Of a stretch of 64,000 nucleotides of DNA, positions 1 to 24,302 are shown piece after piece. Source of the DNA: Candidatus Nanohalarchaeota archaeon (GTDB lineage Archaea; Nanohalarchaeota; Nanosalinia; Nanosalinales; JAFCCC01); assembly GCA_017610385.1 (NCBI GenBank), contig JAFCCC010000004.1:2863-66862 (forward strand). The letters are read 5' to 3'. The number at the start of each line of letters is the position of its first letter. Within the stretch, counting starts at the first letter, position 1. Below the pieces are notes generated by a model, which saw nothing but the letters and a program-made list of their open reading frames with translations, was not told the DNA's origin and searched no databases. The translations under genes and the position numbers were made by a program.

Positions 1-1524
1 ATAATTCTTAATAGAGCCTTTTTTAGAAAACATAGCGTCATTTAACGTCATTCCCAATTGTTGAATTCTCCGTAAAGTTTCCACGAAGAAATTATGCATA
101 GGCGTTTCTTTTTCTCCTATTTTTTCATACTCTTGAATTACTTCATAAAGAGAACGCTCCATTGGAATATTTTTAGCCAGCGAATTTTCTAACTCAGTTA
201 AACCCAAATCTAAACCTTGCTCAATTTCCTCAATCATTTCTCTGATTTTTTTCCTTTTGTAAGAACGACCAATAAAAAAAGTTACTAAGCCAGCCAAAAT
301 CCCCCAAAATATAGTAAACGCTTGGAACATATCTGCGATTAGATTTGCTCCAATATACCTCTGAGCCATAAAAATTTTGAATTCAGCAGTTCCAGAAAAG
401 AATATATACGCGTTAAAAATTTTAAAAAAATGAAATAATCCAGGGATAATTAGAACAAAAGTTATTAGAAAACATACTGGAACCAATGGAAGGAAAATTT
501 CCTTTCCACCCAATTTAATAATTAATTTATCTTTTGGTGGCACATTTGCGACATTAACTAAGGCAGGATGCGCATAAGCCCCAGGTCTCTTAGCGATTTG
601 CCTGTGAATTACAAAAAATAAAAGAGAAGGCATTATAAAAATGTATCCGACTGCAATGTAAATTGGATTTATGGCATCATGCAGAAAAATACTGACTAAT
701 GGAAACATAATCAAACCCATTATTGGCAGAACAATTCCCATCATATGTATAAGAGTAACAGGACCTTTCAAATTCTGTGCATACCTCTGCATATTGTTGT
801 AAGTAGATTCTATAATGTACTCTTGCGCTTTTTTAACCATATATCGTCGTTCATCACCCACTCTTGAAACAGAATTAATCAAATATTCTAACGCCTTAAC
901 AAAGTCATTACTCCATTCTCTCCAAAGTTGCGTATAATGACCTAGAGCAACTTTTATATTGGTGTAGTGACCCATTTCTAGATCCCATAATAATTTAGAA
1001 AGATCTGTTGATAGAGGCCCTGTGGTGTAACGGGCTGACGTTCTTATGGCCCCTTCTAAGCTAGGATTCATGTCTAAATACATTGCCATATATAAAATAA
1101 CCCTTAAAGCAGCATCTGAACCCTGAATCCTTGTAACTTCTGCTTTAAATCCAGGATAAGATAACATATAGTATGTCCAAAATAACGGAACCAACCAAAT
1201 CATAAATCTCAAAGGAGATGGAAAAATCACAGTTAAAAATAACCACACAATAGTCAGTAAACCCACGGTAATAAGAAATGTTCCTCCAATTTCTTTAGGA
1301 GTAAGATTTAGCCTAGCAACGCGAATGTGCTCTTCAAATTTCTCATCAGTTTTTTTGCCCAAGCTAACTTTAGCGAACTTAGAAAAATAATGGCACATTT
1401 TTTCGTAGAAAAGACGCCGCTCTTTGGATTTTTCTGCTTTTAAATATCTCTGATACTCTAAACTAATATACCGGTTCCTTTTTTCCTCTTCGGAAACTGG
1501 TTTAGAACGTTTTTTAAAAAACAT
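1..1524 (-). CDS. FlaJ/TadC/PilC-like polytopic platform protein (paralogue of 7599..9659); 3' end lies outside the window
   Basis: Absent from the ORF track because there is no stop in the window. The minus strand is open in one frame from ATG 1524..1522 to base 1 (508 codons): MFFKKRSKPVSEEEKRNRYISLEYQRYLKAEKSKERRLFYEKMCHYFSKF... It is collinear with ORF 7599..9659, e.g. SLEGAIRTSARYTTGPLSTDLSKLLWDLEMG vs NLEGAVIFAATNLEGPISKDLKKVLWNVEVG, and NLKGPVTLIHMMGIVLPIMGLIMFPLVSIFL vs DLKMPVTILNGFGILLPVLGMIALPLASIFL. Several long hydrophobic helices. Confidence 0.7.
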   Translation of the reverse strand, partial: MFFKKRSKPVSEEEKRNRYISLEYQRYLKAEKSKERRLFYEKMCHYFSKFAKVSLGKKTDEKFEEHIRVARLNLTPKEIGGTFLITVGLLTIVWLFLTVIFPSPLRFMIWLVPLFWTYYMLSYPGFKAEVTRIQGSDAALRVILYMAMYLDMNPSLEGAIRTSARYTTGPLSTDLSKLLWDLEMGHYTNIKVALGHYTQLWREWSNDFVKALEYLINSVSRVGDERRYMVKKAQEYIIESTYNNMQRYAQNLKGPVTLIHMMGIVLPIMGLIMFPLVSIFLHDAINPIYIAVGYIFIMPSLLFFVIHRQIAKRPGAYAHPALVNVANVPPKDKLIIKLGGKEIFLPLVPVCFLITFVLIIPGLFHFFKIFNAYIFFSGTAEFKIFMAQRYIGANLIADMFQAFTIFWGILAGLVTFFIGRSYKRKKIREMIEEIEQGLDLGLTELENSLAKNIPMERSLYEVIQEYEKIGEKETPMHNFFVETLRRIQQLGMTLNDAMFSKKGSIKNY

Positions 1525-1584
1525 TACAATAGACAATTGACGAAATTTTTTTAAATATCTTTACTAAAGAACTTTATAGGAAAG

Positions 1585-4500
1585 ATGACCACAACAAAAC
1601 CAGATTCAAAATTTAAAGGTAATACGCCAAAAATAGACTATTTTGAGCAATCAGAGTATTATTTTGATCGCAATGAAAAACGAATCCGTCTAAATCTTCA
1701 AGGAAGTAGTTATGCTGCTTCAATTGAGGATTTCGGCGAAGTTATGAGTAAAGTTATTACTTACCTTAGAAAAATAAGGGAAGCGCGATCATTTGTTCTT
1801 GCTAAGGATAGAGAATATGAATATACGGTTTACCAAACACATTTATTAAAGGAAATTGCAGAAGTTCTCGAATTTATCAAAAGAAAAAAATTAACAAATC
1901 CCTCTCAGTTAGAAATACCAAGTTGTGGAAAACATACTGCCGAAAGAGTTGCTTTTATGCAAGATTTTGTAATTAACAAATTGCAAACAGACCCTCTTGG
2001 TGCATATGTTCGACTAAAAAGATATATTGAAGAAATGACTGTTATTGAAAACAAAGAGAGAGGGATATCTAATCGTTGTTATCAAAAATATATTTCAACA
2101 GTTTTAGAGCCTATCAGAATAGAATTAGAAAAAACAGATTTAATTCAAAAAGTAAAAGATCAGCTTCCTGGACATCATATTGGAAATAGAGACATCTATA
2201 GACAGATTTTTCATCCAACAATTCGGCCAAATTTTATGTTGACTAGATATCAGGCATCGCTTCCTGAAAATGGAAATGAAATTGATCATTACATGATTCC
2301 TGTAGTAAATGCAGAAGTTCGGATTTTCAAAGTTTTAGGAGATATTAGACTACATTATCATATTACTCCGCCAGAATTTAATTTAAACGAAGAAGAATAT
2401 GCTATTTTAGATACTGCCCGAAGATATATGTCTGAACATGAACCAACAGAATCTGAGTTTGCAGATCCAGAAAGAACAAGGGAAGTTTTCTTTAATATTG
2501 GAAAAGACATGCTTTTGGATATTTTGGCTAGTATGGAACTGGAGTTAAGTGAAGAAAAAGTTGAACAATTAGCCACTATTTTAACAAGATATACTGCTGG
2601 TTTAGGAATCTTAGAGGTTCTTTTAGCAGACCCAAACTTACAAGATATTTATGTTAATTCTCCTGTAGGGAACATTCCAATTTATACTATTCACGGGAAA
2701 TATGGAGACTGCGTAACCAATCTTATTCCTACTTCCGATGATGCTGAATCCTGGGCTACACGATTCAGAATGAGCTCTGGAAGGCCATTAGATGAGGCTA
2801 ATCCTGTGTTAGATACAGAGACAGAAGTGCCAGGCGGGCGGGCCAGAGTAGCAATTATATCTAAAAATTTAAGTCCAGAAGGTCTAGCCTTCGCATTTCG
2901 ACGTCATAGAGAAAAGCCATGGACCTTTCCGTTGTTTATTGAACAAAATATGTTAACTCCATTGGCTTCTGGGTTACTAAGCTTCATAATCGACGGCGCA
3001 AGGACAATGCTCATTGCAGGAACTAGATCTGCTGGAAAATGTGTTGAGGGTAACACCTTAATTCAACTTTCTGATGGCAACATCAAAAAAATTAAGGATT
3101 TGATTGGGGTAGAAAAACTCAAAATAGATGATGGAAAATTATATGAGCCAAGAGACCCGTCTTACGTTCAAAGTTTAAGTGAAATGACCAATAGCTCACA
3201 AAAGATTCAACATGTATGGAAAAGAGAATCCCCTGAAAAAATGATTAAATTAAGGACAAAAACCGGTAAAGAGATAGTTACTACTCCAGAACACCCGTAC
3301 TTTATCTATAATGGCGCGCTAAAGAATAAAAGAGCTGATGAATTAAAGACTGGAGAGTTGATTGCAACACCAAGGAGAATTAAAACCAATGCAATAGATG
3401 TAAAAATCGAGTTAGACCACAATAATCATTTATTCACAGAAACAAAAAGTTACTATCTTGTAAAAGGTCGTACCAACGCCCATCAGGTTAAATTCCCCAA
3501 AAAAGTAACACCGGAACTTTCCGAATTTATTGGTCTCATCTGTGGAGATGGACACTTAGATTTACACAAATTAGAATTCCATAATTGTTGCCCAGAATTA
3601 AGAAAAAGATATATTTCATTACTTGAGATGTTCGATCTTCCTTACAGAGTTTTCAAAAGTAAAACTACTTATGTAGTACAGGTCACATCTAGAGTATTAA
3701 ATAGAATTTTAAATGATGTTTTCGAAATTCCATTTGGAAAAAAAGCAGATAAGATTATTATTCCACAAAAAATCTTACGATCTAATAACACTGTTTTGGC
3801 AGCATTTATTAGAGGATATTTTGACACAGATGGTTTTGTACATAAAAATAAGCGAGAAATTGAAATCACTAGTGCAAGTGAGGCCATAATTGAACAATTA
3901 AGGATGGCTCTTTTAAGATTCGGAATCATTTCTACAACGAATAGAAAACGGGTTAGAGGATCAACTTATTTTAGATTACTAATATATGGAGCTTTTATTG
4001 AACCATTTGCAAAAGAAATTGGATTTTCTCAACCTGACAAAGAAAAAAGATTAAGACGATTATTATCTGAAAAACACATGAATAATACCAATATTGATGT
4101 AATACCTCAGGGAAACGAAATCTTGCGGACTTTAAGAAAAGTTTTGAGAGTGAGTCCATTAGATTTGCGAGGGGCTGGAAAAGATTGTTGGGCATATGAA
4201 ACTAATCAGTACAGAGTAACACGAAGATGGTTTAAAAAGATCATTGAATTTTATAGAAAAAGGTATGATTATTTAATTGAGAGTAAAGAACAGATTGAAC
4301 TTCTTCGAAAATTTATTGAATTTGATTGTGATACATATTTATCTAAAGTGGATTATTTAAGAAAACTTCTTGGAATATCCTATGTAACTCTTTCTGCCGA
4401 TTTGAATATTTCTGATTCTGGACTTAAAAAAATACTTCAAAAGAACAAGGTAAGTGATATAGAAAAATTATGGGAAATCCATAAGTTAAAGCAAACTTTT

Positions 4501-7500
4501 AGCGTTCACCAAAAATCCTTATCCAATTTAAACGAGGTTGCACCAATCATTAAAAATACACCAATTTTTGTTGACGCCGGATTAATTTCTTACGCAAAAC
4601 TTTCAAGAGATTTAAAAATACCAGAAACTACGTTGAAGTCCTATTGTTATGGAGGAATCACAGTTTCAGAAGAAAAAGCAAAACTTATTGAACATAAATT
4701 GACTTCAGTTAAAAATAAAGTAGTAGAACAAATAGAAAAATCAGAGAGTATCTTGCAAGAATTAAATTCATATGATTTTATTGCACACTGTGTTTCTTTT
4801 GGAACACTATTGCAAAAATTTAGAGAAGATCTTCACATCACAAATCAGGAATTTGCTTCAGAAGACTTCTCGGTTTCTACAGTTTCTAATTTCTTTGCCG
4901 GTAGATATAAACCCTCCTACATGGTTTTAAAATCTCTTATTGGGACAATATTAAAAATTTATGATGATTCTACCTCTTTAAAGGTACAAACTAGGTTAAG
5001 CGTATTTGAAAAATTAGCAAATTCAGATATTTTTTGGGACGAAGTCTCTTCCGTGGAATTTATTAACAAGAGTGATGACTTTGTTTATGATTTGACAATT
5101 GAGAATACGCACAATTTTGTTGCAAATGGACTTTTTGCACATAATACTTCTCTTCTAAGCGCCTGTTTAACCGAGCTGATGAAGAAATACCGGATCTGCA
5201 CAGTAGAAGACTCAGTGACCGGAGATTCTAAATTGATGTATCGCATTAATAACCAATTTAAAAGAACGACTATAGGTGAACTCATTGACCCCCTCGTTGA
5301 CCCAGAGAACAAAATAGCCACAGACAATTTAGAAATACTAACAGACCTTCCTGAAAAAATAGAGGTTTATAGTATAGATGAATTCGGAAAACTTCACCTC
5401 TCACCAGTTTCTGCTGTTTCAAGGCACAAAGTTAAGAAAAAAATCTATGAAATTGAAACTAGAACTGGACGCAAAATTAAAGTAACAGAAGACCACTCAT
5501 TATTCTCTTTGAATAATTCTGCGCAAATTTGCCCAATACCCACCAAACAACTTAAAGCAGGGAATTACATTGCAACACCTCGTACCTTAAAATTATCTCA
5601 AAAAAATTTAGATTTTCTCAACTTGGCAGACTACACAGAGAAACTTAATGGATACTTTGTTTCTAAAAATATAAGCAAATATATACAGGAAAACAGAAAA
5701 AAAGTTTTAAAATTAGCTAAAAAATATAATTATTCAGATTCAACTGTGGGAAGTTGGGTACGCAACGGAATTTTGCCTTCCCCAATCTTTAAAGAACTTG
5801 ATTTAAAAGAGAACCTGCCTCTTACATCTTTAAAATATAAAGAAGGCGGTCATTCCAGGGAAATAAACTGTAAAATAGGTCTTACTGAAGAACTACTTTC
5901 TTTTATGGGTATGTGGCTAGCAGATGGCTGTTATGATCAAAGAAGCATAATACTTTCTATTGCTGATAAAGAAGCAGTTGATATCATCACAAAAATTAGC
6001 AAATTATTTGGATGCGCTCTAAAAAAGCATTCGGATGGTTTTTCATACATGTTCAATAGCAAAACTGTAAAAGAAGTTATGATTTCTGTTCTGGGCCTAA
6101 CTGGAAACTCTCATACTAAAAGAATTCCGAATCTAATATATAATTTATCAGAAAAACAAATTGGCGCATTTTTAAAAGGTTTATTTAGTGGTGACGGATA
6201 TACTGCAAAATATGAAGTAGGTATATCTCTTATTAATGCTAAATTAATCTCAGACGTTCAAACATTGCTTCTGGGGTTTGGAATTATTTCTCGCGTCAGG
6301 CTTGCGTCAGGTAAGGGCACATCTTCCTATAATACTTCACACAATATGATTAGTCTGCGCATTAGCGGAATAAAATTCTTAGAGGAATTTAGAAAAAAAG
6401 TAAATTTTGTTCAGAACCACAGAAAAGAGTTCCTAGAAAAACTCTGTAATAAAAATATAACTCACGACAATACAGATATTATTCCTATTTCTTTAGATTT
6501 TAAAAAGAGGCTTTCAGTTATTTGCCCCTCATTTAGTACCTACGATTACATCACAAGAGAAAATAATCTTGGCAGAGAAAAACTAGCTAGCTTAATAGAG
6601 GAAATCCCTGCCGGAGACACAGAACTGCTTTTGACTTCCAAGGATTTAGCAGAATCTGATGTATTTTGGGATCAAATAAAAAGCATCAAAGAAATCGAAC
6701 ACGATGGCAGTTACGTATACGATCTCTCTGTTCCTCAAAACGAATCTTTTGTATGTGAAAATATTTTAGCTCACAACACGCTAGAGATTCCAGTTTCTTC
6801 GTTGCGTGATTTGGGATATAATGTTGAACGAATGAAATCTCGTTCTGTAATTACCCAAGTTGAAAGCGAACTTTCAGCAGATGATGCAATTAGAACTGCT
6901 TTAAGATTAGGTGATTCTGTTCTAATTATTGGAGAGGTAAGGAGTTTAGAAGCTAAGTCTCTTTATGAGGCAATGCGAATTGGTGCTCTAGCAAATTTTG
7001 TGGCAGGAACAATTCACGGAGACTCAGCGTATGGTGTTTTTGATCGTGTTGTAAATGATCTAGGTGTTCCCCCAACCTCTTTTAAAGCAACAGATATTGT
7101 TGTTGTAGCAAATACTCTTAGATCTCCGGATGGGCTACATACCTTTAGGAGAGTAACCAATATTGTTGAAGTAAGAAAAGAATGGACTGAAGACCCCTTA
7201 AAAGAACACGCTTTTGTTGATTTAATGATTTATGACTCTCAAAAAGATGAATTAGTTCCAACAGACACATTATTAAACGGTGAAAGTTTCGTTTTGAACA
7301 GTATTGCGAATAATATTAGAGAATGGAAAAATGATTGGACGGCGATTTGGAATAACATATTACTAAGAGCCAAAATTAAAGAGACTCTTGTTAAATATTC
7401 TAGGGACTTTAAAAAACCAGAAATTTTAGAAGCAGAATTTACAGTTAAATCAAATGAGAAATTCCATGAACTTAGTGAGTTTGTTAAGCAAGACCAAGGA

Positions 7501-7596
7501 ATTATGAATTCTAAAAAAATATTTTCCTTATGGTTAAACTGGGTAAAAAAAGAGCTTAAACTACAAAATATAAAGGCAAATGACTTCTTATTATAG
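1585..7596 (+). CDS. Type II/IV secretion-family ATPase (GspE/FlaI/PilB/VirB11 superfamily), interrupted by two inteins
   Basis: 2003-aa ORF. Removing the two inteins in silico leaves a 779-aa extein reading ...IAGTRSAGK|TSLLSACLTELMKKYRICTVED|TLEIPV...VLIIGEVRSLEA...VAGTIHGDS. These are the Walker A, Asp box, Walker B and His box, collinear with ORF 26279..29926 (GGTGSGK|TSLLNVL..RIVSIEDTREIQL..RIIVGEIRRKRQA..YSTLHADT). Confidence 0.9.
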   Translation: MTTTKPDSKFKGNTPKIDYFEQSEYYFDRNEKRIRLNLQGSSYAASIEDFGEVMSKVITYLRKIREARSFVLAKDREYEYTVYQTHLLKEIAEVLEFIKRKKLTNPSQLEIPSCGKHTAERVAFMQDFVINKLQTDPLGAYVRLKRYIEEMTVIENKERGISNRCYQKYISTVLEPIRIELEKTDLIQKVKDQLPGHHIGNRDIYRQIFHPTIRPNFMLTRYQASLPENGNEIDHYMIPVVNAEVRIFKVLGDIRLHYHITPPEFNLNEEEYAILDTARRYMSEHEPTESEFADPERTREVFFNIGKDMLLDILASMELELSEEKVEQLATILTRYTAGLGILEVLLADPNLQDIYVNSPVGNIPIYTIHGKYGDCVTNLIPTSDDAESWATRFRMSSGRPLDEANPVLDTETEVPGGRARVAIISKNLSPEGLAFAFRRHREKPWTFPLFIEQNMLTPLASGLLSFIIDGARTMLIAGTRSAGKCVEGNTLIQLSDGNIKKIKDLIGVEKLKIDDGKLYEPRDPSYVQSLSEMTNSSQKIQHVWKRESPEKMIKLRTKTGKEIVTTPEHPYFIYNGALKNKRADELKTGELIATPRRIKTNAIDVKIELDHNNHLFTETKSYYLVKGRTNAHQVKFPKKVTPELSEFIGLICGDGHLDLHKLEFHNCCPELRKRYISLLEMFDLPYRVFKSKTTYVVQVTSRVLNRILNDVFEIPFGKKADKIIIPQKILRSNNTVLAAFIRGYFDTDGFVHKNKREIEITSASEAIIEQLRMALLRFGIISTTNRKRVRGSTYFRLLIYGAFIEPFAKEIGFSQPDKEKRLRRLLSEKHMNNTNIDVIPQGNEILRTLRKVLRVSPLDLRGAGKDCWAYETNQYRVTRRWFKKIIEFYRKRYDYLIESKEQIELLRKFIEFDCDTYLSKVDYLRKLLGISYVTLSADLNISDSGLKKILQKNKVSDIEKLWEIHKLKQTFSVHQKSLSNLNEVAPIIKNTPIFVDAGLISYAKLSRDLKIPETTLKSYCYGGITVSEEKAKLIEHKLTSVKNKVVEQIEKSESILQELNSYDFIAHCVSFGTLLQKFREDLHITNQEFASEDFSVSTVSNFFAGRYKPSYMVLKSLIGTILKIYDDSTSLKVQTRLSVFEKLANSDIFWDEVSSVEFINKSDDFVYDLTIENTHNFVANGLFAHNTSLLSACLTELMKKYRICTVEDSVTGDSKLMYRINNQFKRTTIGELIDPLVDPENKIATDNLEILTDLPEKIEVYSIDEFGKLHLSPVSAVSRHKVKKKIYEIETRTGRKIKVTEDHSLFSLNNSAQICPIPTKQLKAGNYIATPRTLKLSQKNLDFLNLADYTEKLNGYFVSKNISKYIQENRKKVLKLAKKYNYSDSTVGSWVRNGILPSPIFKELDLKENLPLTSLKYKEGGHSREINCKIGLTEELLSFMGMWLADGCYDQRSIILSIADKEAVDIITKISKLFGCALKKHSDGFSYMFNSKTVKEVMISVLGLTGNSHTKRIPNLIYNLSEKQIGAFLKGLFSGDGYTAKYEVGISLINAKLISDVQTLLLGFGIISRVRLASGKGTSSYNTSHNMISLRISGIKFLEEFRKKVNFVQNHRKEFLEKLCNKNITHDNTDIIPISLDFKKRLSVICPSFSTYDYITRENNLGREKLASLIEEIPAGDTELLLTSKDLAESDVFWDQIKSIKEIEHDGSYVYDLSVPQNESFVCENILAHNTLEIPVSSLRDLGYNVERMKSRSVITQVESELSADDAIRTALRLGDSVLIIGEVRSLEAKSLYEAMRIGALANFVAGTIHGDSAYGVFDRVVNDLGVPPTSFKATDIVVVANTLRSPDGLHTFRRVTNIVEVRKEWTEDPLKEHAFVDLMIYDSQKDELVPTDTLLNGESFVLNSIANNIREWKNDWTAIWNNILLRAKIKETLVKYSRDFKKPEILEAEFTVKSNEKFHELSEFVKQDQGIMNSKKIFSLWLNWVKKELKLQNIKANDFLL
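3040..5145 (+). mobile_element. Intein 1 (702 aa, LAGLIDADG homing-endonuclease type) inserted in the Walker A motif
   Basis: Begins with Cys (CVEGNTLIQL, tgt 3040..3042) directly after the P-loop Lys. Block B is VTTPEHPYF. Two LAGLIDADG motifs (FIGLICGDGHL, FIRGYFDTDGFV). Ends FVANGLFAHN (aat 5143..5145) followed by +1 Thr. In frame with the host. Confidence 0.9.
5212..6777 (+). mobile_element. Intein 2 (522 aa, LAGLIDADG type) inserted in the Asp-box (..VED|T..)
   Basis: Begins with Ser (SVTGDSKLMY, tca 5212..5214). Block B is KVTEDHSLF. LAGLIDADG motifs are FMGMWLADGCYD and FLKGLFSGDGYT. Ends FVCENILAHN (aac 6775..6777) followed by +1 Thr. Excision restores RICTVED-TLEI, matching RIVSIEDTREI of the paralogue. 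Confidence 0.85.
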
Positions 7597-7598
7597 GT

Positions 7599-14265: not shown

Positions 14266-14269
14266 AATA

Positions 14270-14815: not shown

Positions 14816-15843
14816 TCACACATACAAACACACATAGAAAAGGAGATTTTGAAAAGATTATCGTTTTTATTTTTCTAATTGTTGTAGGAGTGACCATTAT
14901 GGGCTTTGCAGCACTAGACTTTATTCATTTCAAAGTAGACGTTCAAACTTCTGGTCAAGAAGAATACAATCGATTTGCTTTAACTGAAAAAATACTAAAT
15001 GCACCGGGTTGTACTATTTCAAGAGGAACTTTCTTAAAAAGTAAATTATTATCTCAGGACCCAGAAACCTGTCAATTTATTGATTGCCCTATAGATACTA
15101 CAATTGACTGGGCGTATTCTGCACTGTCCAACGACTTTGAACTCCCAATTTGTGAAGTAACAACTAGCAGCGACCAAACTGTAAAATATAAATTTAAAAT
15201 TTCAGAAGCGATTCCTATTTTAGTTTATGATAAAGCCTCTGGCGTATATTCTAGTGCGTATTTGCTTATTTATGGACCAGAAGGAATTTATTCTTCATCA
15301 TATTCGTCTGGTAGATCTGCACCAGGAACTTTAGAGGTTTCAGAAAAAGAAAAGTATAAATCAAAAATAAATGTAGATTATATGTATGATTTTGATTGTG
15401 ACGCTCCGCAGGGATTAGAACCACGAGCAAAATGCGTCATTGATCAGGTTATTGGGAGTATAGAAGCTAATACGGGTGGTAGATGCAATCCTTGCGAATT
15501 AAAATCTGAAGTTTATGCAGGTACAGATAAAAAAGAAACAGAAACGGTTAAAGAAGATGTAGGTGGTATTTGGAGTACCTGGGAAAAATGGACTGCAGAT
15601 AATTTTGTTTCAACCGTTGTTTGGGCAGGAGAAGATACAAACATTGGAATAAAATGGAATTATGTGACTGGAAAAACAGGGTCCGGGTATTTTACGAGAA
15701 ATTTCAGAAAACCTTATTTAAAAATAATTTATCGAGTTATTTGCCCACCCGGCATGGTTGCAGAGCAAATTGATGATAAGTATCAATGTAAGGGATTAGA
15801 ACCCGCAGAAGAAGAAAAATCAGAGGTACCAGAAGATGCATAA
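14797..15843 (+). CDS. Pilin-like protein (class III signal), Cys-containing globular domain
   Basis: MRSKLLITHTNTHRKG|DFEKIIVFIFLIVVGVTIMGF. Overlaps the upstream gene by 19 nt. Confidence 0.6.
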   Translation: MRSKLLITHTNTHRKGDFEKIIVFIFLIVVGVTIMGFAALDFIHFKVDVQTSGQEEYNRFALTEKILNAPGCTISRGTFLKSKLLSQDPETCQFIDCPIDTTIDWAYSALSNDFELPICEVTTSSDQTVKYKFKISEAIPILVYDKASGVYSSAYLLIYGPEGIYSSSYSSGRSAPGTLEVSEKEKYKSKINVDYMYDFDCDAPQGLEPRAKCVIDQVIGSIEANTGGRCNPCELKSEVYAGTDKKETETVKEDVGGIWSTWEKWTADNFVSTVVWAGEDTNIGIKWNYVTGKTGSGYFTRNFRKPYLKIIYRVICPPGMVAEQIDDKYQCKGLEPAEEEKSEVPEDA

Positions 15844-16429
15844 TCACAAAGGAATGGAAGCATTTTTAGCAGTTCCTATTGGACTAGCCTTTATTATTAT
15901 TATCGCTTTTGGGCTAAAAGCAGTTGGTAATGTAACCCTAATTCAATCTCACATTCTAGTTGAACAGACCTTTGCATTTGAAAGTTCATTTGGAACATTG
16001 GTTAATCAGGTGAATCAATTATTGAGTATTAAGAATCCTGATAATTTTCCTGGAGAATTACGTCTACCAAATAAAAAAATTGACAAGCTTTCTTATTGGC
16101 TTGCATTTTATGCTCATGCAAATAAAACCAATTCAAATATTAAATATAATGTTACAGATCCAAATTCAGCTGAAATTTCTTTGGAAGACGCAAATGTCTC
16201 AATTACTGCACAACTAAACGAAACTGCCCATGCAATTCTATCAACCGATATATTTTATTCCTTACTATTCGCAGATATTGTTGTTAATCAGATTCCAGAC
16301 AGAAAAATACAGACGTTTGGTAGAGCAATACTTCCAATACCAATTCCTGGTGATGAAATAAAATATTTCAAATTTGGAAGAGAAGAAACAAATTATAATT
16401 TAGTGTTATCTCAAAAGGAGCGTGATTAA
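15836..16429 (+). CDS. Pilin-like protein (class III signal)
   Basis: MHNHKG|MEAFLAVPIGLAFIIIIAFGL. 8-nt overlap with the upstream gene. Confidence 0.6.
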   Translation: MHNHKGMEAFLAVPIGLAFIIIIAFGLKAVGNVTLIQSHILVEQTFAFESSFGTLVNQVNQLLSIKNPDNFPGELRLPNKKIDKLSYWLAFYAHANKTNSNIKYNVTDPNSAEISLEDANVSITAQLNETAHAILSTDIFYSLLFADIVVNQIPDRKIQTFGRAILPIPIPGDEIKYFKFGREETNYNLVLSQKERD

Positions 16430-19400
16430 GTGAATTATAAACTTTCGAAAGGTATGGGTGAAGGAGTTATTATTGTTATTATTCTTTTGGGAAGTTTAAT
16501 CAGTCTAGTTTTAGGAATTAGCGCTCAAATGTGGACGGTCCACAACAAGGTCGCAAGAATAGAAGATTTTTCTGCAATGGTCCAAACGCATGCAATAGCA
16601 AATCATTTAGAAGAACATTATATTAATCAAAGTCTAGTTTACGCTAGCTGGGAGTCTTCTTATCAGCTAGGGAAGATTGGAGGAACTTCAGCAGAATGGA
16701 AAGAAGGAAAGCTTCCTAAAATTGATGAAATTTCTTGGAATTTGGCTCAGAATATTACACATTCAAAATATTTTAGCAGTTTTGAAAGCAAAGAATGTAT
16801 TGTAAATTTTAAAGATGAGTATCAATTTGAAGATATTAATTTCAGCAAGGAAAATTCTTTTGAATTCTTCGCAAATAAGACTCCAATTGAGGTTAGTTGC
16901 TCTAAAAATAGTGCCACCGCAAAGTATTATTTAAATGCCTCTCGTTTGATAACAAGCAGTGGAAACAGATATTTTCATTTATATGATTTATGTTATAATT
17001 TATCTAATTGGACAGATTTCTTCGCAGATCAAATCGAAGATCCAAGTGGCAATTATTATGGCATATTCGCGCTTCCAGTGGAGGGCATGTCAGATAGTTT
17101 AAAAAATACATTTACTCCCGAATGTTCCCATGAAATAACTGATTCTCCAGGATCAGTCATTGAAGCGGCTTCTTTCTTGGTTGCTCAGTTGATTGCTGAA
17201 ATCGGATATCGAGGCGAAGTTTACGATGCCTATAAAAAAAGTAAAGACCTCGCAACCCTTCCAGATGGTGTAGAAATAGATTTAGAAAATGAAGCAAAAT
17301 TAAGATGGCCAAGTTTAAGTCATGAAATTCTAAGTTTATTATTTCCACAGTTGATGGGAAAATTAGGTGATTTACGAGCTAATATTCAAACATTAATAGA
17401 TGGTATAGAAACTCAAATTGACGCTACTTTAGCTGACTTTCAAAATTCTGGAATTATAGATATTGCTCATGATTTATCTACTTATTTGAAAGATTCATTA
17501 ACGACTGTAGAAAATATTCAAAAAATGGTCGATGACGCAAAAACAACTGCAGACAATATTCTTAATTCATTTGATTTTGTAGATTCAGCAGCAAAAACTG
17601 TTACGGATGTTGGTAACGATGTTGTTGATACAGTAGGTTCTATTACCTATAGTGATTTCATGGACGGTTTAAAGATGGATATATCTACAAAAATAACTGA
17701 TTTTGAACAACAAACTGTAAATAAAATTACGAATCCAATTGAGGACCTACTAGATAAAGCGAATATTGATTACGGAAGAAGAGCTTCTGCGTCTAGTCTT
17801 AGTGATTTTGCAGATGATACAGTCTCGCCTGTTTCCGAAGAATCACTAACTAAAGATGAATTAAAAAAACAAATTAATGATATAATTGATTCAACGGATT
17901 TAACTGATCTTACAGTGGATTTTACAGACTCTATTAAAGATGAAGCTCATAAAAAAGTAACTGCTTTTGTTGATGAAAATATTAAAGAAAAAATTAACGA
18001 CGCAATTGAAAAAACTATTTCTGACTTAAATGAAACATTAAGAAAGGAGATTAAAGAACAGTTCAAAGAACAATTTACAACAATAATAAGAGATAATTTA
18101 GAAGAACCAATTAAAGAACAAGTACGAAGTGTTATTCAAGATTCTATTCGAGGTTCAATAGACAGTTTATTAAATGATATTTCTGAGCAAATTGACCAGC
18201 AAATTGACCAGTATCTTGATGATATGTTAGGAATAAATTCCGAGTCTGGAGAAATTGATTATACTAGTTTAGTAGGTACAATTAGTGAAAATTGTGCTTT
18301 GCCCGACGATTTCTCTTTATTAGATAGCCTAAAAGACGAAGTTGAAAAGGTTATTAAAGAACAACTTCAAGAAAGCTTGTCTGGTGTCGTTGACCAATTA
18401 AAATCAGAAATAAAAGACGCAACTGAAAATACAATATTAACTGCTTTGGATGACACAATTGATTCTATTACAAGCGAATTAGAAACTGAAATTTTGTCTA
18501 TTTTAAATGAACAAACAGATGCGATAGTAGATTATTTTGTAAATGCGTTAGACGGACCAATATCTGATTCTATAAATCAACTTTTAGATAATTTAGAAGA
18601 GCAAATTAGTCTTAAAACAGATAATTTCATTAATTCCGCCGTAGATCAAGTAAATCCAATCGCAGAAGAATTTGATAGCAAAGTCAGCAACATCAAAAAT
18701 ATTGTGAAAAACGCTGCAGATTTGGCTATTGATTTAACTTATGAAAATGCAGCAGCAACTGAAACAGGATATTTTAAAATTAAAAATGCCGCTAGTTTTG
18801 GCGCAAGATTAAAAGAGGTAACTCCCATTAATAGACGGATTAAGACCAATATCATTACCTCTATTGAGACTTCAATTCACACAGAGATATTTGAACCAGT
18901 TTTAGTTGTTGTAAATGCCTTTGAACCAATTGATGAAGAAAAAGTTAATAATTTACAACAAAATCTTCTTGACGTAGCAGATACTGTGATGGAAGCTTCT
19001 GAAATTTTAAATGATGCTTCTGAAATAAAAGCTAAAATTGATTTGCAATTGGATCAAGTTCATTCTAATATTCAAACCACCCTAAATAATTTAGATAGTC
19101 AAATAGAAAGTACAATAAGTACACTTGATTTAATTGAACCATTCATAAATCAATTAAAATACATTAAAACAATTGTTGTAGCAAATATTGATAAGCTTAG
19201 CAATGTTCTAAGTGGAAACACTCCTTTTGTTTTTCATTTTCCACCAGAATCCAAAAAAATGATTTTAGACGTAACTGTTCCAATTCCGACACCGGCTGGC
19301 ATGGTTTACATACGAGCAGTTATTACAAGGGTTAAAATAGATCCCGAATCCGCTAAATACGACATACGCGCCACAGACAACAAATTTGTTCTTCCAGTAA

Positions 19401-19486
19401 GCGACGGATACAAAAATTTAGAGTTCGTTTGTCCTTATAAACAAGTATTTGAAGGAACCTTAGAGCAACCTCTGCCAGAATCTTGA
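16430..19486 (+). CDS. Giant (1018 aa) pilin-like protein with a long acidic, helix-prone region
   Basis: The GTG start abuts the upstream TAA, with AAGGAG ~10 nt upstream. N-terminus is MNYKLSKG|MGEGVIIVIILLGSLISLVLG. Residues ~300-900 are D/E/I/K/Q-rich with loose internal periodicity (KEIKEQFKEQFTTIIRDNLEEPIKEQVRSVIQDSIRGSIDSLLNDISEQIDQQIDQYLDD). Confidence 0.65.
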   Translation: MNYKLSKGMGEGVIIVIILLGSLISLVLGISAQMWTVHNKVARIEDFSAMVQTHAIANHLEEHYINQSLVYASWESSYQLGKIGGTSAEWKEGKLPKIDEISWNLAQNITHSKYFSSFESKECIVNFKDEYQFEDINFSKENSFEFFANKTPIEVSCSKNSATAKYYLNASRLITSSGNRYFHLYDLCYNLSNWTDFFADQIEDPSGNYYGIFALPVEGMSDSLKNTFTPECSHEITDSPGSVIEAASFLVAQLIAEIGYRGEVYDAYKKSKDLATLPDGVEIDLENEAKLRWPSLSHEILSLLFPQLMGKLGDLRANIQTLIDGIETQIDATLADFQNSGIIDIAHDLSTYLKDSLTTVENIQKMVDDAKTTADNILNSFDFVDSAAKTVTDVGNDVVDTVGSITYSDFMDGLKMDISTKITDFEQQTVNKITNPIEDLLDKANIDYGRRASASSLSDFADDTVSPVSEESLTKDELKKQINDIIDSTDLTDLTVDFTDSIKDEAHKKVTAFVDENIKEKINDAIEKTISDLNETLRKEIKEQFKEQFTTIIRDNLEEPIKEQVRSVIQDSIRGSIDSLLNDISEQIDQQIDQYLDDMLGINSESGEIDYTSLVGTISENCALPDDFSLLDSLKDEVEKVIKEQLQESLSGVVDQLKSEIKDATENTILTALDDTIDSITSELETEILSILNEQTDAIVDYFVNALDGPISDSINQLLDNLEEQISLKTDNFINSAVDQVNPIAEEFDSKVSNIKNIVKNAADLAIDLTYENAAATETGYFKIKNAASFGARLKEVTPINRRIKTNIITSIETSIHTEIFEPVLVVVNAFEPIDEEKVNNLQQNLLDVADTVMEASEILNDASEIKAKIDLQLDQVHSNIQTTLNNLDSQIESTISTLDLIEPFINQLKYIKTIVVANIDKLSNVLSGNTPFVFHFPPESKKMILDVTVPIPTPAGMVYIRAVITRVKIDPESAKYDIRATDNKFVLPVSDGYKNLEFVCPYKQVFEGTLEQPLPES

Positions 19487-19660: not shown

Positions 19661-21184
19661 ATGTACTCTAAGAAGGGAATGAGCACCATGGCTTTTTTAA
19701 TTGTGGGTATTGTTCTAGCGGTAATTGTTGCATTATTAATTACTCTGCAAGTAAGAGCAAGTAACTCTAGTGTTGATGGACTATATTCAAAAGCAAAGCA
19801 ACAGTGGATTAATTTTTTTGGAGATAGTACACAGAACTCACATGATTCAAATGGAGATAACGGCGCTTCAACACATTTAGAATGTATAAATGAAATTTGT
19901 GTTGAAAAAGAAGGTAAAGGAACTGATAGCTCATCCTGTTCAACCGTTGGGGAAAGTTGCACTTTGGGTGCGTTGACTGCAGCATTTACTGTCAGTCCAA
20001 ATAATCCGACAACTCAGGATACTCCCCAGTTCAATGCTGAAAACTCACAAGGAGATATAACTCTTTATGAATGGGATTTTGGAGACGGATCTGACAAAAA
20101 GGCAGTTACCAACAAAAAAATAAATCATGCGTATAATGTTCCCGGGATATTTACAGTTAAACTAGTAGTCCATGACGATGTAGGGAATTTAGATGAGATT
20201 GCACTTAAAGTAACTATTATTGCGGTTAGCAATAACGAAGTACCTCCTTTAGCCGCATTCACTGTTTCTGCAGAATATCCAGGACCAGGGCAACCAGTTC
20301 AATTTACAGATGGCAGTAGCGATTCTAATGGCGTGATTGATATTGAAACACGAACTTGGGATTTCGGAGATGGACAAACTTCTTTACTTACAGATCCAGA
20401 ACATACATATTATGAATTAGGAGAGAAGGAAGTATCATTAACGGTTGTTGATAGGGCAGGAGAACAGAATGTAGCTCAAAAAATCCTCATGGTAAAAGAA
20501 TATCCTATTGCTGATTTTAGGATTATACCAAATCCCGATACAAATGAACTCAGAGTTGGAGATAGTATTACTTTTAATGGAGAAAATAGCCAAGACCCAA
20601 CAGAGCCCACCAAGGCAATTTCTAAATGGGAATGGAATATTAGTGCTCGTAGCAGTTACTCAGGTTCCATAGACGATGTTATTCTTCAGGGCAGCTATGT
20701 TTCACACGTGTTTACAGAAGAAGGAACCTATTCAATTGCTCTGACTGTTACATCAGCCGATGGAAACAGAACAAATACGCTTATAAAAGAAATTGAAATA
20801 TTACCAAAATTAATAATAGAACCAAGTGTAACTCACATTTATCGATACGTTGAAGGTACAATAGACAAATCAACTAAAATAAGAATAAAAATTAAAAATG
20901 AAGATGAAACTGCACTTAATATTTACGCTTCTATTAAAATTATGGATGATACAGAATGTGATAGTGATAGCCCCTCCATCATCATGCCTTCTTCACTACT
21001 AATTCAACCAGGAGATACAACTGACTTTTTAGACTTCAAAAACCTGTGTTATTGGCCACTCAATAAAGAAACTCACATACAAATTACAACTGGTCAAGAA
21101 GGTAGTTCAACTATGTGGTACACTTGTGTGACCTGCAAGGCAAATACTGCGCAATGTGGTCCTATAATTCCCGGACGGTGTTAA
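19661..21184 (+). CDS. Pilin-like protein carrying three PKD-type Ig domains
   Basis: The ATG at 19661 gives MYSKKG|MSTMAFLIVGIVLAVIVALLITL. PKD signatures: YEWDFGDGS..HAYNVPGIFTVKLVVHDDVGN; RTWDFGDGQ..HTYYELGEKEVSLTVVDRAGE; WEWNIS..HVFTEEGTYSIALTVTSADGN. Confidence 0.75.
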   Translation: MYSKKGMSTMAFLIVGIVLAVIVALLITLQVRASNSSVDGLYSKAKQQWINFFGDSTQNSHDSNGDNGASTHLECINEICVEKEGKGTDSSSCSTVGESCTLGALTAAFTVSPNNPTTQDTPQFNAENSQGDITLYEWDFGDGSDKKAVTNKKINHAYNVPGIFTVKLVVHDDVGNLDEIALKVTIIAVSNNEVPPLAAFTVSAEYPGPGQPVQFTDGSSDSNGVIDIETRTWDFGDGQTSLLTDPEHTYYELGEKEVSLTVVDRAGEQNVAQKILMVKEYPIADFRIIPNPDTNELRVGDSITFNGENSQDPTEPTKAISKWEWNISARSSYSGSIDDVILQGSYVSHVFTEEGTYSIALTVTSADGNRTNTLIKEIEILPKLIIEPSVTHIYRYVEGTIDKSTKIRIKIKNEDETALNIYASIKIMDDTECDSDSPSIIMPSSLLIQPGDTTDFLDFKNLCYWPLNKETHIQITTGQEGSSTMWYTCVTCKANTAQCGPIIPGRC

Positions 21185-21328
21185 TGGTACTAAAGTATAT
21201 TTGCTAAAGCAAATTAAGAACTTAAATTACGAAATCAAATGAGAAAAATTAAAAGTAACAAATCAAATTATTAAATTAACTTAGAAAACCAAATTATAAA
21301 ATTATATGAAAGTGGAAAGTGAAATATC

Positions 21329-22174
21329 ATGAAAAGAAAAGGATTTAACACAATTATGACCACCATAATTGTCGTAGCGGCAGTAATGATAGCAGTAGTG
21401 ATTAGTTTGGTCGCTTTTTCAGCACCTGTAAAAGACCTAGGTAACAGAACCCTAAGCACGATTAAAGATGTTTTTGATAATATCTTTTCCATAGGTCCTG
21501 GTGGAGCAACAACCCACGCGGCACTATTTGATACTGCAAGTTTGCCTTCGGGAGGAGTTAGAGATACTGCGAAAGCCTCTAATAAGGCCCTAACCGCTCT
21601 TTCAGATGTGACTGAGCCATTAGAGGATCTAGTGTCAGATGCTGGAAATGGCGTCACCGCAGCAGCAATCAAGGCTGCCGTAGATTCAGAAATAGACATA
21701 TCCTACGATATAGTTAATTACAACCCTCCACCAATCTATGACAATAAAATTTTCTATTCTGGATTTGAAGTAAGCCCAGACATAACAGATTGGGATTTGC
21801 AATTTAAAGAAAATCTTCTTGTTATGACGTTAAATTTCGTTGTTGGAGGTCAAGCTAAGCAAGCAGAAGGCTCTGTGGAAATTCCATTAGTTAATCAGGA
21901 CTTAGAATTAGAATATGATATAGGTAGTTTAGTAACTCCAATTGGAACTGCAGAAGCATCTCTGGAATTTAGTGGAAAAATTCAAGCAGGAACGCATGGA
22001 TTTCCATTACAGGGTGGAAAAACCTATAATTTAGGTGCGCATGCAGAGTTCGTTGGACGTAATAGTGATAATCTCACAATTACTGTCAACGTTCACACAA
22101 CTGACGAGGGTTTAGAAGCATCAGCTTCTGGCGATGCCGTATTGCAAATAATTGTTTTCGCTGAAGAAGCATAA
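21329..22174 (+). CDS. Pilin-like protein (class III signal)
   Basis: MKRKG|FNTIMTTIIVVAAVMIAVVISLVAF. Confidence 0.65.
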   Translation: MKRKGFNTIMTTIIVVAAVMIAVVISLVAFSAPVKDLGNRTLSTIKDVFDNIFSIGPGGATTHAALFDTASLPSGGVRDTAKASNKALTALSDVTEPLEDLVSDAGNGVTAAAIKAAVDSEIDISYDIVNYNPPPIYDNKIFYSGFEVSPDITDWDLQFKENLLVMTLNFVVGGQAKQAEGSVEIPLVNQDLELEYDIGSLVTPIGTAEASLEFSGKIQAGTHGFPLQGGKTYNLGAHAEFVGRNSDNLTITVNVHTTDEGLEASASGDAVLQIIVFAEEA

Positions 22175-22192
22175 TGCACTTGTGGTGGTTAA

Positions 22193-23317
22193 ATGAAAAA
22201 AGGATTGCAAATAATTACAGCTTTAGTTATCGTTATGGCGATTTTACTAGCAGGAGGCATAGCATATACTTCGGTAGCACAGGTCTGGAATAAAATAACA
22301 GAAGAGGGCACAAAAGCAAATCCTTTTGCAGATGTAATAAATCTTCTTATGGGTAAAAAAGCGTTTTCAGTAAGAGTAGATGATACACAATATACTATTC
22401 ACAAAATAGATGTTGTTGGAGCTTCTGGAACGGTTTTAAAATCTATTGAAGATTCAAACGTGATTGAATTTCCTATTAAGCCCGGCAAGAAATATTCTAT
22501 TAATTTTTACGTTGAAGATCCCATTGGAAATAAACTAACAATTCAAAGCCAATCCTTTTCTACTAGAGAAGACAAAGGTAAAACCATTTTATTGTCTGGA
22601 AGTTTTAACGGAGATGTATTTGTATTTTCCAAAGCCAAAGTTTACTTGAATGGATTAAAAAGTGTTGGAGGTACACCCATAAAATTCCCCAAAATTATGG
22701 AATACTCTCCAGAACCATCTGACGCAAGTGTGGATTGCAGTACCCAAACAAATTTTAAAACACAGATAGTGAACACAGGACTTATTTGTCCTGCATGGGA
22801 TAAAGGAGCAGATAAGGTCGGTTTTTGTGCCCTTGGCAGAATAGATGCAGGTTTTTGTCTTCCAAGAATTTATCAGACCACGAGGCTGTCTGGAGGAATT
22901 ATGTTAAATTTGAGTAACAAGGTATATGTATGTGAACAAGGACTACCTAGAGCAAGTGATAAAGATAATGATATTCCTCAAGAATTTAAAGAGCTTTGTG
23001 GAGTTTCCCCCTCTTCTGGAGATGTTATTATGGTTGTAACTGAAGAAATAAGTCCACAACTTATTTTTACATCCGCGGAAAATACAAGAATTCCTCTTTC
23101 AATTGCAATTAACACATATTCACGTATTTTCATTAATGAAAAATCAACAAGAGGATTAGAAAGCTGCTTAGACCCAAACAGAAAAAGCATCCTATCTTCT
23201 TATAAAAGAGGAGATTGTAAAATCAATTTTTATTATTACAAAGTGTGTCCTCCAGGATATTCTTATGATAGAAGTACTACTGACGGTGGTTGTATTAAAT
23301 TAGAAGCAGTCAATTAA
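22193..23317 (+). CDS. Pilin-like protein (class III signal), Cys-containing C-terminal domain
   Basis: MKKG|LQIITALVIVMAILLAGGIAY. GGTGG lies a few nt upstream of the ATG. Confidence 0.6.
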   Translation: MKKGLQIITALVIVMAILLAGGIAYTSVAQVWNKITEEGTKANPFADVINLLMGKKAFSVRVDDTQYTIHKIDVVGASGTVLKSIEDSNVIEFPIKPGKKYSINFYVEDPIGNKLTIQSQSFSTREDKGKTILLSGSFNGDVFVFSKAKVYLNGLKSVGGTPIKFPKIMEYSPEPSDASVDCSTQTNFKTQIVNTGLICPAWDKGADKVGFCALGRIDAGFCLPRIYQTTRLSGGIMLNLSNKVYVCEQGLPRASDKDNDIPQEFKELCGVSPSSGDVIMVVTEEISPQLIFTSAENTRIPLSIAINTYSRIFINEKSTRGLESCLDPNRKSILSSYKRGDCKINFYYYKVCPPGYSYDRSTTDGGCIKLEAVN

Positions 23318-23370
23318 CGAATATATTTATATGGGGTAATTCCATAATAATATACAAAGGGGTTTAGTAG

Positions 23371-23928
23371 ATGATAAAACGAAAAGGAATGACCATGGCA
23401 ATTCAAATTGTCATAGTAATTATTGTTTTAGTTGTTCTAGCGCTTCTAGTTATCGGAATTACAAGAGGTCAAATATTTGGCGGTTTGGGATTCCTTCAAA
23501 CTAAAGGAGATCAACAAGATTGTTTGTCTAGTAGGGATATTTATTGTCAAACAGAACCTACGGGTTGTTGGGCTTCTTCAGAAGAAAAAATTCAAAAATC
23601 CATTGAAGACGAAGGTAGATTTTGTCATACAATCTTAGGTAAAAAATTAGAGAATTCTTATTATTCTTGTCAATATAGGGAATATATTGATGAATCAGCT
23701 TACTCCATTATTGAAGGCATAAATACCACAGAAGAATACTATACAGCAGCTCGATCTGAAAGTGAGGGTGGCACTTATCGAGGTTATTTAAAGGATATTT
23801 GCAGAGGATTTAAGAAATATTGGGATTCCGATAAGCTTAATTGCACAAAAAGCAAAGCAGAACAATCTCCCGAAGATATAATTGATCTTACATTTTTAAA
23901 CGCCTTGGATTGCAAATCTCTTAATTAA
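23371..23928 (+). CDS. Pilin-like protein, Cys-patterned (paralogue of 23937..24302)
   Basis: MIKRKG|MTMAIQIVIVIIVLVVLALLVIG. Shares YCQTEPTGCWASSEEKIQKSI with YCQQNPSACWNASEAIVKEI of the next gene. Confidence 0.65.
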   Translation: MIKRKGMTMAIQIVIVIIVLVVLALLVIGITRGQIFGGLGFLQTKGDQQDCLSSRDIYCQTEPTGCWASSEEKIQKSIEDEGRFCHTILGKKLENSYYSCQYREYIDESAYSIIEGINTTEEYYTAARSESEGGTYRGYLKDICRGFKKYWDSDKLNCTKSKAEQSPEDIIDLTFLNALDCKSLN

Positions 23929-23936
23929 GTGATAAT

Positions 23937-24302
23937 ATGAAAAGAAAAGGAATGACTATGACGATGCAGCTGTTGATTACAGCAATTGTATTAATTGTAA
24001 CTGCTTTAACTGTATTATTAATTGTAAATAGCAAATTAGTTAGCGGTCCACAAAGAGTAGATGAAGTAGGCAATCGGAATATTTGTATTGCGAATAAAAA
24101 TACATATTGTCAGCAGAATCCAAGTGCTTGTTGGAACGCAAGCGAGGCTATTGTAAAAGAAATTTCTTGTGCTGAAAGGTTAGGTAAATCTGAAAAAGGA
24201 ACATTATTCAATTGTAAAGAACGCACATATTATACAAGTGAAGAATATGATAGTATTCTAGCAGGAATATTAGAGGTTTCTTGCGGCGCAGAAGAAATGT
24301 AA
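23937..24302 (+). CDS. Pilin-like protein, Cys-patterned
   Basis: MKRKG|MTMTMQLLITAIVLIVTALTVLLIV. Paralogy as noted under 23371..23928. Confidence 0.65.
   Translation: MKRKGMTMTMQLLITAIVLIVTALTVLLIVNSKLVSGPQRVDEVGNRNICIANKNTYCQQNPSACWNASEAIVKEISCAERLGKSEKGTLFNCKERTYYTSEEYDSILAGILEVSCGAEEM

Follow-up and report, generated by a model that had tools for sequence, protein, structure and literature searches.

Two type IV pilus-like loci are conserved across the cluster-2 DPANN archaea (Hamm et al. 2024, Nat Commun; PMC11291902, section 8, Fig. 4). One of them contains CpaF, TadC and coiled-coil proteins, the other adds FlaF, PilA, Mpg, GroEL, GatE and an NTPase, and proteomics detects locus proteins in Ca. 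Nanohaloarchaeum antarcticus (PMC11291902). The 'dark matter' islands that lie beside an ATPase and TadC in DPANN genomes have been read as divergent pilins (Makarova et al. 2019, PMC6393860). A preprint by Sivabalasarma & Albers (2026; 10.64898/2026.04.22.720090) describes a system 2 with extended ATPase termini, a single platform, many pilins and adhesins, and subsystems 4A/4B with two platform genes, noted in some DPANN. In non-halophilic relatives of the Nanohaloarchaeota, no annotatable pilins were reported (Zhao et al. 2022, PMC9563170). Here we analyze a 64-kb stretch of DNA from a Candidatus Nanohalarchaeota archaeon (contig JAFCCC010000004.1), which we call the window, and focus on its positions 1-24302, locus A. 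Locus A is a new member of the DPANN pilus-like loci already described (PMC11291902, PMC6393860, 10.64898/2026.04.22.720090), and it probably specifies a machine for assembling a type IV filament (pilus), one of the family conserved in cluster-2 DPANN. It is the most elaborate known version, with two platforms, two inteins, and 13 genes whose products carry a Lys-Gly leader ahead of a hydrophobic helix (K-G genes), plus one more beyond the left edge.

Locus A is organized around a divergent gene pair, the platform gene plat1 on the minus strand and the ATPase gene on the plus strand, with a second platform gene, plat2, next to it. All open reading frames (ORFs) named in an earlier note on this DNA are present where it had placed them, and its pilus assignment is upheld. 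Locus A is supported as a type IV filament locus by its FlaI/TadA-clade ATPase, its platforms of T2SSF type and its prepilin-like substrates, and by a peptidase elsewhere in the window. These components are as follows (aa, amino acids; a slash within a motif marks a splice junction or, in the pilin-like genes below, the predicted cleavage site).

1..1524, minus strand: plat1, platform paralogue 1, 703 aa on the source contig and 508 aa inside the window, whose edge cuts the gene; divergent from the ATPase gene; Pfam T2SSF E=2.3e-5.
1585..7596, plus strand: secretion ATPase precursor, 2003 aa, with a 779-aa extein and a family-specific N-terminal domain of ~250 aa; identified by Pfam T2SSE, NCBIfam and fold search.
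3040..5145 (aa 486-1187), plus strand: intein 1, 702 aa, LAGLIDADG and helix-turn-helix (HTH) modules, in Walker A (GTRSAGK/C...AHN/TS, the GK/T site).
5212..6777 (aa 1210-1731), plus strand: intein 2, 522 aa, LAGLIDADG, first residue Ser, in the Asp box (VED/S...AHN/TLE, the VED/T site).
7599..9659, plus strand: plat2, platform paralogue 2, 686 aa, ~9 predicted transmembrane (TM) segments.
47329..48243, plus strand: prepilin (class III signal) peptidase, family A24, 304 aa; Pfam Peptidase_A24 E=1e-8, NCBIfam FlaK E=3e-6.

The ATPase extein matches Pfam T2SSE with E=7e-17. Among PDB sequences the best match is archaeal GspE (2oap, E=2e-26, query 331-655); CpaF is also matched, and FlaI follows at E=9e-18, with query 257-678 aligned to FlaI 41-446. 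NCBIfam gives FlaI 135 bits, TadA 119, BasE 73 and TrbB/VirB11 ~52, all far under the family cut-offs. For the structure model, the window ATPase was represented by P0001, an intein-free relative with 81% identity. A Foldseek fold search with its AF2 model (pLDDT 76) places GspE and FlaI at ~1e-20, CpaF at 6e-15, PilB at 7.5e-10 and VirB11 at 4e-8. Since GspE, FlaI and CpaF outrank VirB11 by both sequence and fold, the ATPase is of the archaeal pilus/archaellum/Tad type and not of the conjugative type. A grouping with conjugative VirB11, which the earlier note had named as the result that would speak against a pilus, was thus not what we found.

The same note had called the ATPase oversized and intein-laden, with a stretch of ~485 aa ahead of the P-loop. 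Pfam matches in the precursor reveal two splicing domains of inteins together with LAGLIDADG modules; both inteins are complete, and their excision in silico restores the family-invariant GK[ST] and EDTLE motifs. In the spliced extein the Walker A, Asp box, Walker B and His box are all intact, and the Walker A lysine is residue 485. The two inteins and the long N-terminus are therefore real, and the long N-terminus is a trait of the family, whose orthologues are 750-780 aa long and in which inteins recur. The extein of the ATPase of locus B, a second pilus locus in the window, is 519 aa, and its alignment with the locus A extein covers residues 257-617 of the latter, which leaves ~250 N-terminal and ~100 C-terminal residues extra in locus A. 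When the N-terminal 250 residues were used as the query, 192 clusters at 50% identity were recovered, always matching at the N-terminus of the protein, and the full-length proteins were 720-800 aa or intein-sized. In the P0001 model this domain is predicted with confidence as a small alpha/beta unit and a helical bundle.

Orthologues of the ATPase carry inteins at at least three sites, near reference positions 485, 507 and 564, so the intein-laden state is a recurrent feature of the family, with the window joining two of the sites in one gene. Three relatives, P0127, P0152 and P0238 (1772-1783 aa), have inteins at the Asp-box site and at the third site near residue 564. Across the window, the GK/[TS] Walker A site holds an LAGLIDADG and HTH intein in three different P-loop NTPases, the ATPases of locus A (3040-5145) and locus B (within 26279-29926, aa 253-948) and a HerA (within 43738-47223, minus strand, aa 137-659). 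The inteins of the first two are 34% identical, and counting intein 2 of the locus A ATPase there are four inteins in 64 kb.

Two platform paralogues of ~690 aa had been claimed, and both are present at close to that length. They share ~28% identity. The T2SSF match of plat1 lies just below the gathering score, and plat2 by itself has no Pfam match; in a 16-member platform family alignment, 5/16 members match T2SSF (best E=2e-9). A profile of this family finds the TadB-like protein of locus B with 94% probability (hhalign), and the second half of the platform gave no significant hhalign match to the locus B TadC-like protein. A PDB profile search with the family returned no meaningful match, and NCBIfam added nothing useful on the platforms. 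With 8-9 predicted TM segments in each locus A platform versus 4+4 in the split pair of locus B, the contrast between single-chain and split platforms drawn in the earlier note holds. The divergent second platform occurs in the window, in the syntenic locus L016 and in L002 (Nanohalarchaeota NHA22), and in 0/44 metagenomic loci with >=3 kb of upstream sequence. In a neighbor-joining tree the plat1-type proteins of these three loci form their own clade. From this clade and this restricted presence, we conclude that the platform duplication is old but phyletically narrow.

The peptidase has both catalytic Asp motifs of the A24 family (D26 and GGAD88). It lies ~23 kb from locus A and is the sole candidate processing enzyme in the window, where it may serve all pilus loci. 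Its A24 domain covers residues 17-132 of 304; beyond it, a long extension at the C-terminus contains additional hydrophobic segments as well as a soluble, charged part. At 48001-50000, around the 3' side of the peptidase gene and a 375-aa gene at 48556-49683 with a weak DUF7605 match, GC falls to ~26%.

Downstream of plat2, locus A contains 17 genes, 16 of them on the plus strand, which end just before FEN1. The names used here give approximate lengths in aa.

9678..10316, plus strand: g212, N-terminally anchored, paralogue of g279.
10536..10670, plus strand: g44, 44 aa, Flp-like short pilin candidate, MRKG/LGNW, mature ~40 aa; 55% identity in L016, pN<pS.
10676..10843, plus strand: g55, small hydrophobic protein, MKEA N-terminus; 71% identity in L016.
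10852..11673, plus strand: g279, 273 aa from ATG, N-terminally anchored.
11746..13131, minus strand: g461r, secreted or lipoprotein-like, RKG-ASIATILALLSGGGLFGC; a weak, larger homologue at the matching position in L016.
13233..13391, plus strand: g65, 52 aa from ATG, short pilin candidate, QKG/IESIATLIPW; an IETLIPW N-terminus again in L013.
13424..13753, plus strand: g109, K-G pilin-like, Cys-rich.
13747..14265, plus strand: g172, K-G pilin-like.
14270..14815, plus strand: g187, 181 aa, K-G pilin-like.
14797..15843, plus strand: g348, K-G pilin-like, Cys-rich.
15836..16429, plus strand: g197, K-G pilin-like.
16430..19486, plus strand: g1018, K-G-anchored, 1018 aa, acidic, Pro/Gly-poor, predicted mostly long helices; candidate counterpart of the coiled-coil proteins.
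19661..21184, plus strand: g510, K-G-anchored, Cys-rich C-terminus, adhesin candidate with PKD domains (Pfam).
21329..22174, plus strand: g281, K-G pilin-like.
22193..23317, plus strand: g374, K-G pilin-like, Cys-rich.
23371..23928, plus strand: g185, K-G pilin-like, paralogue of g121.
23937..24302, plus strand: g121, K-G pilin-like, paralogue of g185, last before FEN1.
24364-25389, minus strand: FEN1, right neighbour of locus A.

We screened for pilin-like products with an explicit criterion: K or R followed by G or A, plus a segment of 16 or more residues averaging at least 1.9 in hydropathy. All 13 verified products have K at -2 and G at -1, a basic leader of 3-16 residues and a hydrophobic stretch of at least 16 residues within a helix of ~20 or more. 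The earlier count of at least 13 pilin-like genes is therefore borne out, with a 14th beyond the left edge. There the left arm of the source contig (JGI 3300033145, L001) runs on past the window, carrying the remainder of plat1 and then a 264-aa K-G pilin gene that starts FMKKG/QKELTMIISLIILLVV. Besides these, the screen is passed in the 64 kb by g212, with K-A, by five genes of locus B and by a pair of Pilin_N-like genes next to gatDE. Among non-pilus genes of at least 100 aa in the window none passes, and the leftover passers are spurious antisense ORFs. Three further products of locus A, g212, g55 and g279, have N-terminal helices without the conserved K-G cleavage motif. The one gene on the opposite strand, g461r, combines RKG with a brief hydrophobic run that closes with a lipobox-like LFGC, and it is uncertain whether it is part of the machine.

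Shine-Dalgarno-like motifs lie upstream of most chosen start codons, and together with overlapping stop and start codons they indicate operons. The run of abutting or overlapping genes at 13424..19486 that had been noted earlier is real, but it comprises six genes, reaching the seven first counted when g65 is included. Three PKD domains, as earlier claimed, are present in the product of 19661-21184, and such PKD-type matches on g510 were the only useful NCBIfam result for the large pilin-like proteins. The pilin-like proteins evolve fast. A homologue search with g187 yielded one relative, and among these proteins BLAST detects a counterpart in Ca. Nanohalobium constans for g187 alone; a metagenome scan with a g348 alignment found nothing.

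The machine recurs well beyond this window. ATPase orthologues with 55-60% identity occur in Nanohaloarchaeota and Aenigmarchaeota, including three cultivated nanohaloarchaea: Ca. Nanohalobium constans, whose orthologue P0102 is 56% identical, Nanohalococcus occultus and Nanohalovita. Those of Woese- and Nanoarchaeota metagenome-assembled genomes have 38-49% identity. JGI metagenomes contain >536 ATPase matches, and some orthologues carry the NCBI name 'CpaF family'. The platform gene lies immediately 3' of the ATPase gene in 33/52 loci. L016, with an ATPase of ~80% identity, retains all the genes tested in the stretch plat2 to g197, with their order unchanged and identities of 36-71%. For the tested genes, including those of 44, 55 and 52 aa, the nonsynonymous rate (pN) relative to L016 is well under the synonymous rate (pS), which marks the pilin-like genes as under purifying selection.

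The substrates recur as well. In Nanohalo-, Woese- and Nanoarchaeota loci, genes 3' of the orthologous pair of ATPase and platform encode N-termini of the form [KR]-K-G/helix, and in the pooled DPANN loci K(-2) is found in 47/52 genes and G(-1) in 42/52. Of the metagenomic loci with at least 6 kb of downstream sequence, 18/35 have at least one K-G gene, with a maximum of 8 compared with 13 in the window. Very short K-G genes (40-76 aa) adjoining the platform gene are recurrent in related loci. The synteny comparison called for in the earlier note thus shows gene order kept in L016, and the ATPase-platform pair and K-G genes recurring across DPANN loci. The oddities that it had listed are real but not special to the window, since a widespread DPANN system shares the long stretch ahead of the P-loop, the one-chain platform of ~700 aa and the series of K-G genes. 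In Woese- and Nanoarchaeota relatives (L007, at 7212-8928, L009, L011, L012 and L013) we observed three tandem ~185-aa membrane-protein paralogues just upstream of the ATPase gene, with an additional ~127-aa membrane-protein gene upstream of the ATPase in L009 and L011. The ~185-aa paralogues have no homologue in the window.

Locus A can be compared with four known kinds of system. Like the DPANN loci of Hamm et al., it occurs in the same lineages, has an ATPase gene adjoining the platform gene and encodes a large, N-terminally anchored protein predicted to be mostly helical; orthology of ATPase and platform and their conserved adjacency extend to Nanohalo-, Woese-, Nano- and Aenigmarchaeota loci. 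It differs by an additional platform, divergent and accompanied by a pilin of its own, by its 13 K-G genes and by two inteins. The likeness of g1018 to the coiled-coil proteins of Hamm et al. lies in its predicted helices (AF2 single-sequence model, pLDDT 38). When g1018 was compared pairwise by BLAST with the large proteins encoded downstream in L002 and Ca. Nanohalobium constans, no similarity emerged, nor was any sequence similarity seen to the large proteins of L015, and a homologue search with g1018 returned near-identical copies only.

In architecture, locus A resembles archaeal type IV filament system 2 (clade 2) and subsystems 4A/4B (Makarova et al. 2016, PMC4858521; 2026 preprint). 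It shares their extended ATPase N- and C-termini, a platform of ~700 aa encoded by one gene, several pilins together with pilin-like proteins that have no signal motif, and large adhesin-like proteins, and with 4A/4B the two platform genes on either side of the ATPase gene. Unlike these systems, it is without MinD or KaiC-type accessory genes. With Tad/Flp and the archaeal Epd pili (system 1) it shares very short pilins that lack a globular domain (g44, g65), an ATPase fold close to CpaF/TadA and many minor pilin-like genes per operon. However, those systems have a split TadB and TadC and an ATPase of ~420-520 aa, as does locus B, whereas in locus A the platforms are fused chains of ~700 aa and the ATPase has 779 aa. 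The Pfam PF04021 pattern Q(+1)...E(+5) is likewise present in the locus B signals and absent from those of locus A. The archaellum provides the best NCBIfam model and a top structural match for the ATPase (FlaI), and its FlaJ is a similar single polytopic platform; the locus A ATPase has ~215 extra N-terminal residues compared with FlaI, and archaellins and archaellum accessory genes are missing from locus A. On the latter point the earlier note was correct, no such family being matched in locus A by Pfam or NCBIfam.

We propose that the machine would work as follows. Both inteins would be spliced out to give a 779-aa ATPase, which would act as a hexamer at the cytoplasmic face of the ~700-aa polytopic platform. 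The A24 peptidase would trim the prepilin-like substrates at their short basic K-G leader ahead of the hydrophobic helix, and ATP-driven movement of the platform would pull the trimmed subunits out of the membrane into a helical filament. Roles were assigned to subunits by size and operon structure. The likeliest bulk subunits would be the 44-52-aa Flp-like g44 and g65. The coupled operon from g65 to g1018 probably provides a minor-pilin priming or tip complex, of which the long helical protein is the last member, and the K-G proteins with PKD domains or Cys-rich regions may be adhesins carried on the filament. The divergent arm, with plat1 and its own pilin, probably forms a second assembly output that shares the ATPase. 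The filament would likely serve to attach the cell to its host or to a surface.

Several observations weigh against this proposal. Neither the Pfam Class_IIIsignal (PF04021) nor the Pilin_N (PF07790) model matched the locus A proteins or their isolated N-termini at E<=10, while Class_IIIsignal does recognize the locus B pilins with Q(+1)...E(+5). The check by signal predictors asked for in the earlier note therefore has a divided outcome, with the K-G motif found in 13/13 and no match to the Pfam models, which we do not take as refuting the pilus reading. Because the Pfam class III model has no match, we base the class III signal assignment on the invariant K-G motif and genomic context. For none of the pilin-like proteins did we obtain a recognizable pilin globular domain or a confident structure model, and the low-confidence model of g1018 was used for secondary structure alone. 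Linkage is not universal, as 17/35 metagenomic loci with at least 6 kb downstream are without a downstream K-G gene. A PDB profile search with the ATPase's N-terminal domain found no sequence homologue, and the ATPase family, although known, is experimentally uncharacterized in every member. Finally, the choice of the major subunit by size is a guess.

Other readings of the locus were also weighed. The locus might encode a display or pseudopilus machine, in which a short membrane-proximal stalk, as in the Sulfolobus bindosome or type II secretion, presents or releases large K-G proteins. Nine of the 13 K-G products exceed 150 aa and have large extracellular domains, BasE, the bindosome ATPase, matches the locus A ATPase at 73 bits, and filament machineries functionalized with class III signal proteins have been proposed (10.64898/2026.04.22.720090). 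However, BasE scores below FlaI and TadA, substrate-binding-protein domains were not found in locus A by Pfam, and the short Flp-like pilin genes typical of true filaments are kept beside the platform in many loci, making such a machine rather unlikely. The suggestion of a complex filament or multi-adhesin display machine in the earlier note is a reasonable one from gene content, and an ordinary pilus with minor pilins fits equally.

We consider it quite unlikely that the locus encodes a retractile or competence-like pilus importing DNA or nutrients from a host or the environment. This hypothesis has been published for DPANN/Undinarchaeota relatives (PMC9563170, section 10), the genome of the organism is reduced, and the minor-pilin operon bears a resemblance, and no more, to the layout of the Com pilus. 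Pfam and NCBIfam reveal no ComEC-like channel, DNA-binding pilin domain or retraction ATPase in the locus, though, and the window's HerA/FtsK-like NTPases are encoded at a distance from locus A. A still smaller chance attaches to the K-G helices being plain uncleaved signal anchors, clustered by co-regulation and not as substrates of the machine. Such anchors would agree with the missing Pfam class III match and with the basic leader, which the positive-inside rule predicts for N-in anchors, but that rule needs no invariant Gly(-1) and Lys(-2), found here in 13/13. The motif also recurs beside orthologous ATPase and platform genes in distant DPANN phyla and is missing from the non-pilus genes of the window, and a prepilin peptidase is nearby. 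An archaellum or a conjugative, VirB11-type secretion system is hardly credible despite the top rank of the FlaI model and weak VirB11/TrbB matches, since FlaI reaches 135 bits against an equivalog cut-off of 550, VirB11 (~52 bits) falls below GspE, FlaI, CpaF and PilB by fold and sequence, Pfam and NCBIfam find no FlaH, FlaF/G, FlaCDE/X or archaellin domains in locus A, and no VirB4, VirD4 or VirB6 genes are among its Pfam matches.

The window as a whole is archaeal in content, with FEN1, gatD/gatE and two tRNAs and ~33% GC, and the GC is uniform, with FEN1, gatDE and the tRNAs flanking locus A. The median isoelectric point (pI) of the window proteins is 8.7; halophily was thus rejected for the window organism, which, like the relatives studied by Zhao et al. 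(PMC9563170), is not a salt-in halophile. Locus B (26279-37823) is an Epd/Tad-type pilus locus with split TadB/TadC-like platform genes, two pilins matched by Pfam Class_IIIsignal and a VWA-domain protein of 923 aa whose N-terminus is of the K-G helix kind. Further to the right, ~150-aa genes at 51029-51481 (plus strand) and 54966-55415 (minus strand) flank gatD/gatE. Their N-termini, RKG/ISPVIA and QKG/VSPLIA, are of the canonical archaeal pilin type, with weak Pilin_N matches, and fit the PilA/FlaF-GatE linkage of 'Locus 1' (Hamm et al. 2024, PMC11291902). An operon at 57512-63977 (minus strand) encodes a 1204-aa HerA/FtsK-like NTPase and proteins of 339 and 611 aa, and may be the 'NTPhyd' component of DPANN Locus 1. 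With its split-platform locus, HhH-GPD glycosylase, HerA, peptidase, PilA-like genes, gatDE and large NTPase, the right half of the window resembles Locus 1 of Hamm et al. Since the glycosylase, GatE, NTPase and PilA-like genes of the rest of the window resemble Locus 1, locus A is probably their Locus 2.

The cultivated DPANN archaea all live attached to hosts, and the molecules of contact are largely unknown. In the Nanobdellota, cryo-electron tomography of the attachment organelle shows a filament entering host cells, whose protein components are unknown (PMC11420986). It is possible, if unlikely, that the locus A machine builds this DPANN host-penetrating filament or an equivalent nanohaloarchaeal host-contact structure, that is, a pilus-derived penetration or cytoplasmic-bridging apparatus. 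If so, the Flp-like pilins would form the shaft and the long helical K-G protein the tip or sheath, and coupling of the machine to the structure would fall to the second platform and to the family-specific domain at the N-terminus of the ATPase.

The ATPase, at 50-60% identity, is among the best-conserved non-housekeeping proteins common to several DPANN phyla. Published annotations often report no pilins (PMC9563170), and locus A displays candidate substrates. It also yields a rule for finding substrates in DPANN genomes: a [KR]-K-G leader and short Flp-like subunits by the platform, with a coupled minor-pilin operon ending in a giant helical protein and PKD and Cys-rich adhesin candidates as further marks. 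The biology is already known in kind, and the value of locus A is in annotation and hypotheses and not in discovery. It gives candidates that could be localized in cultivated nanohaloarchaea.

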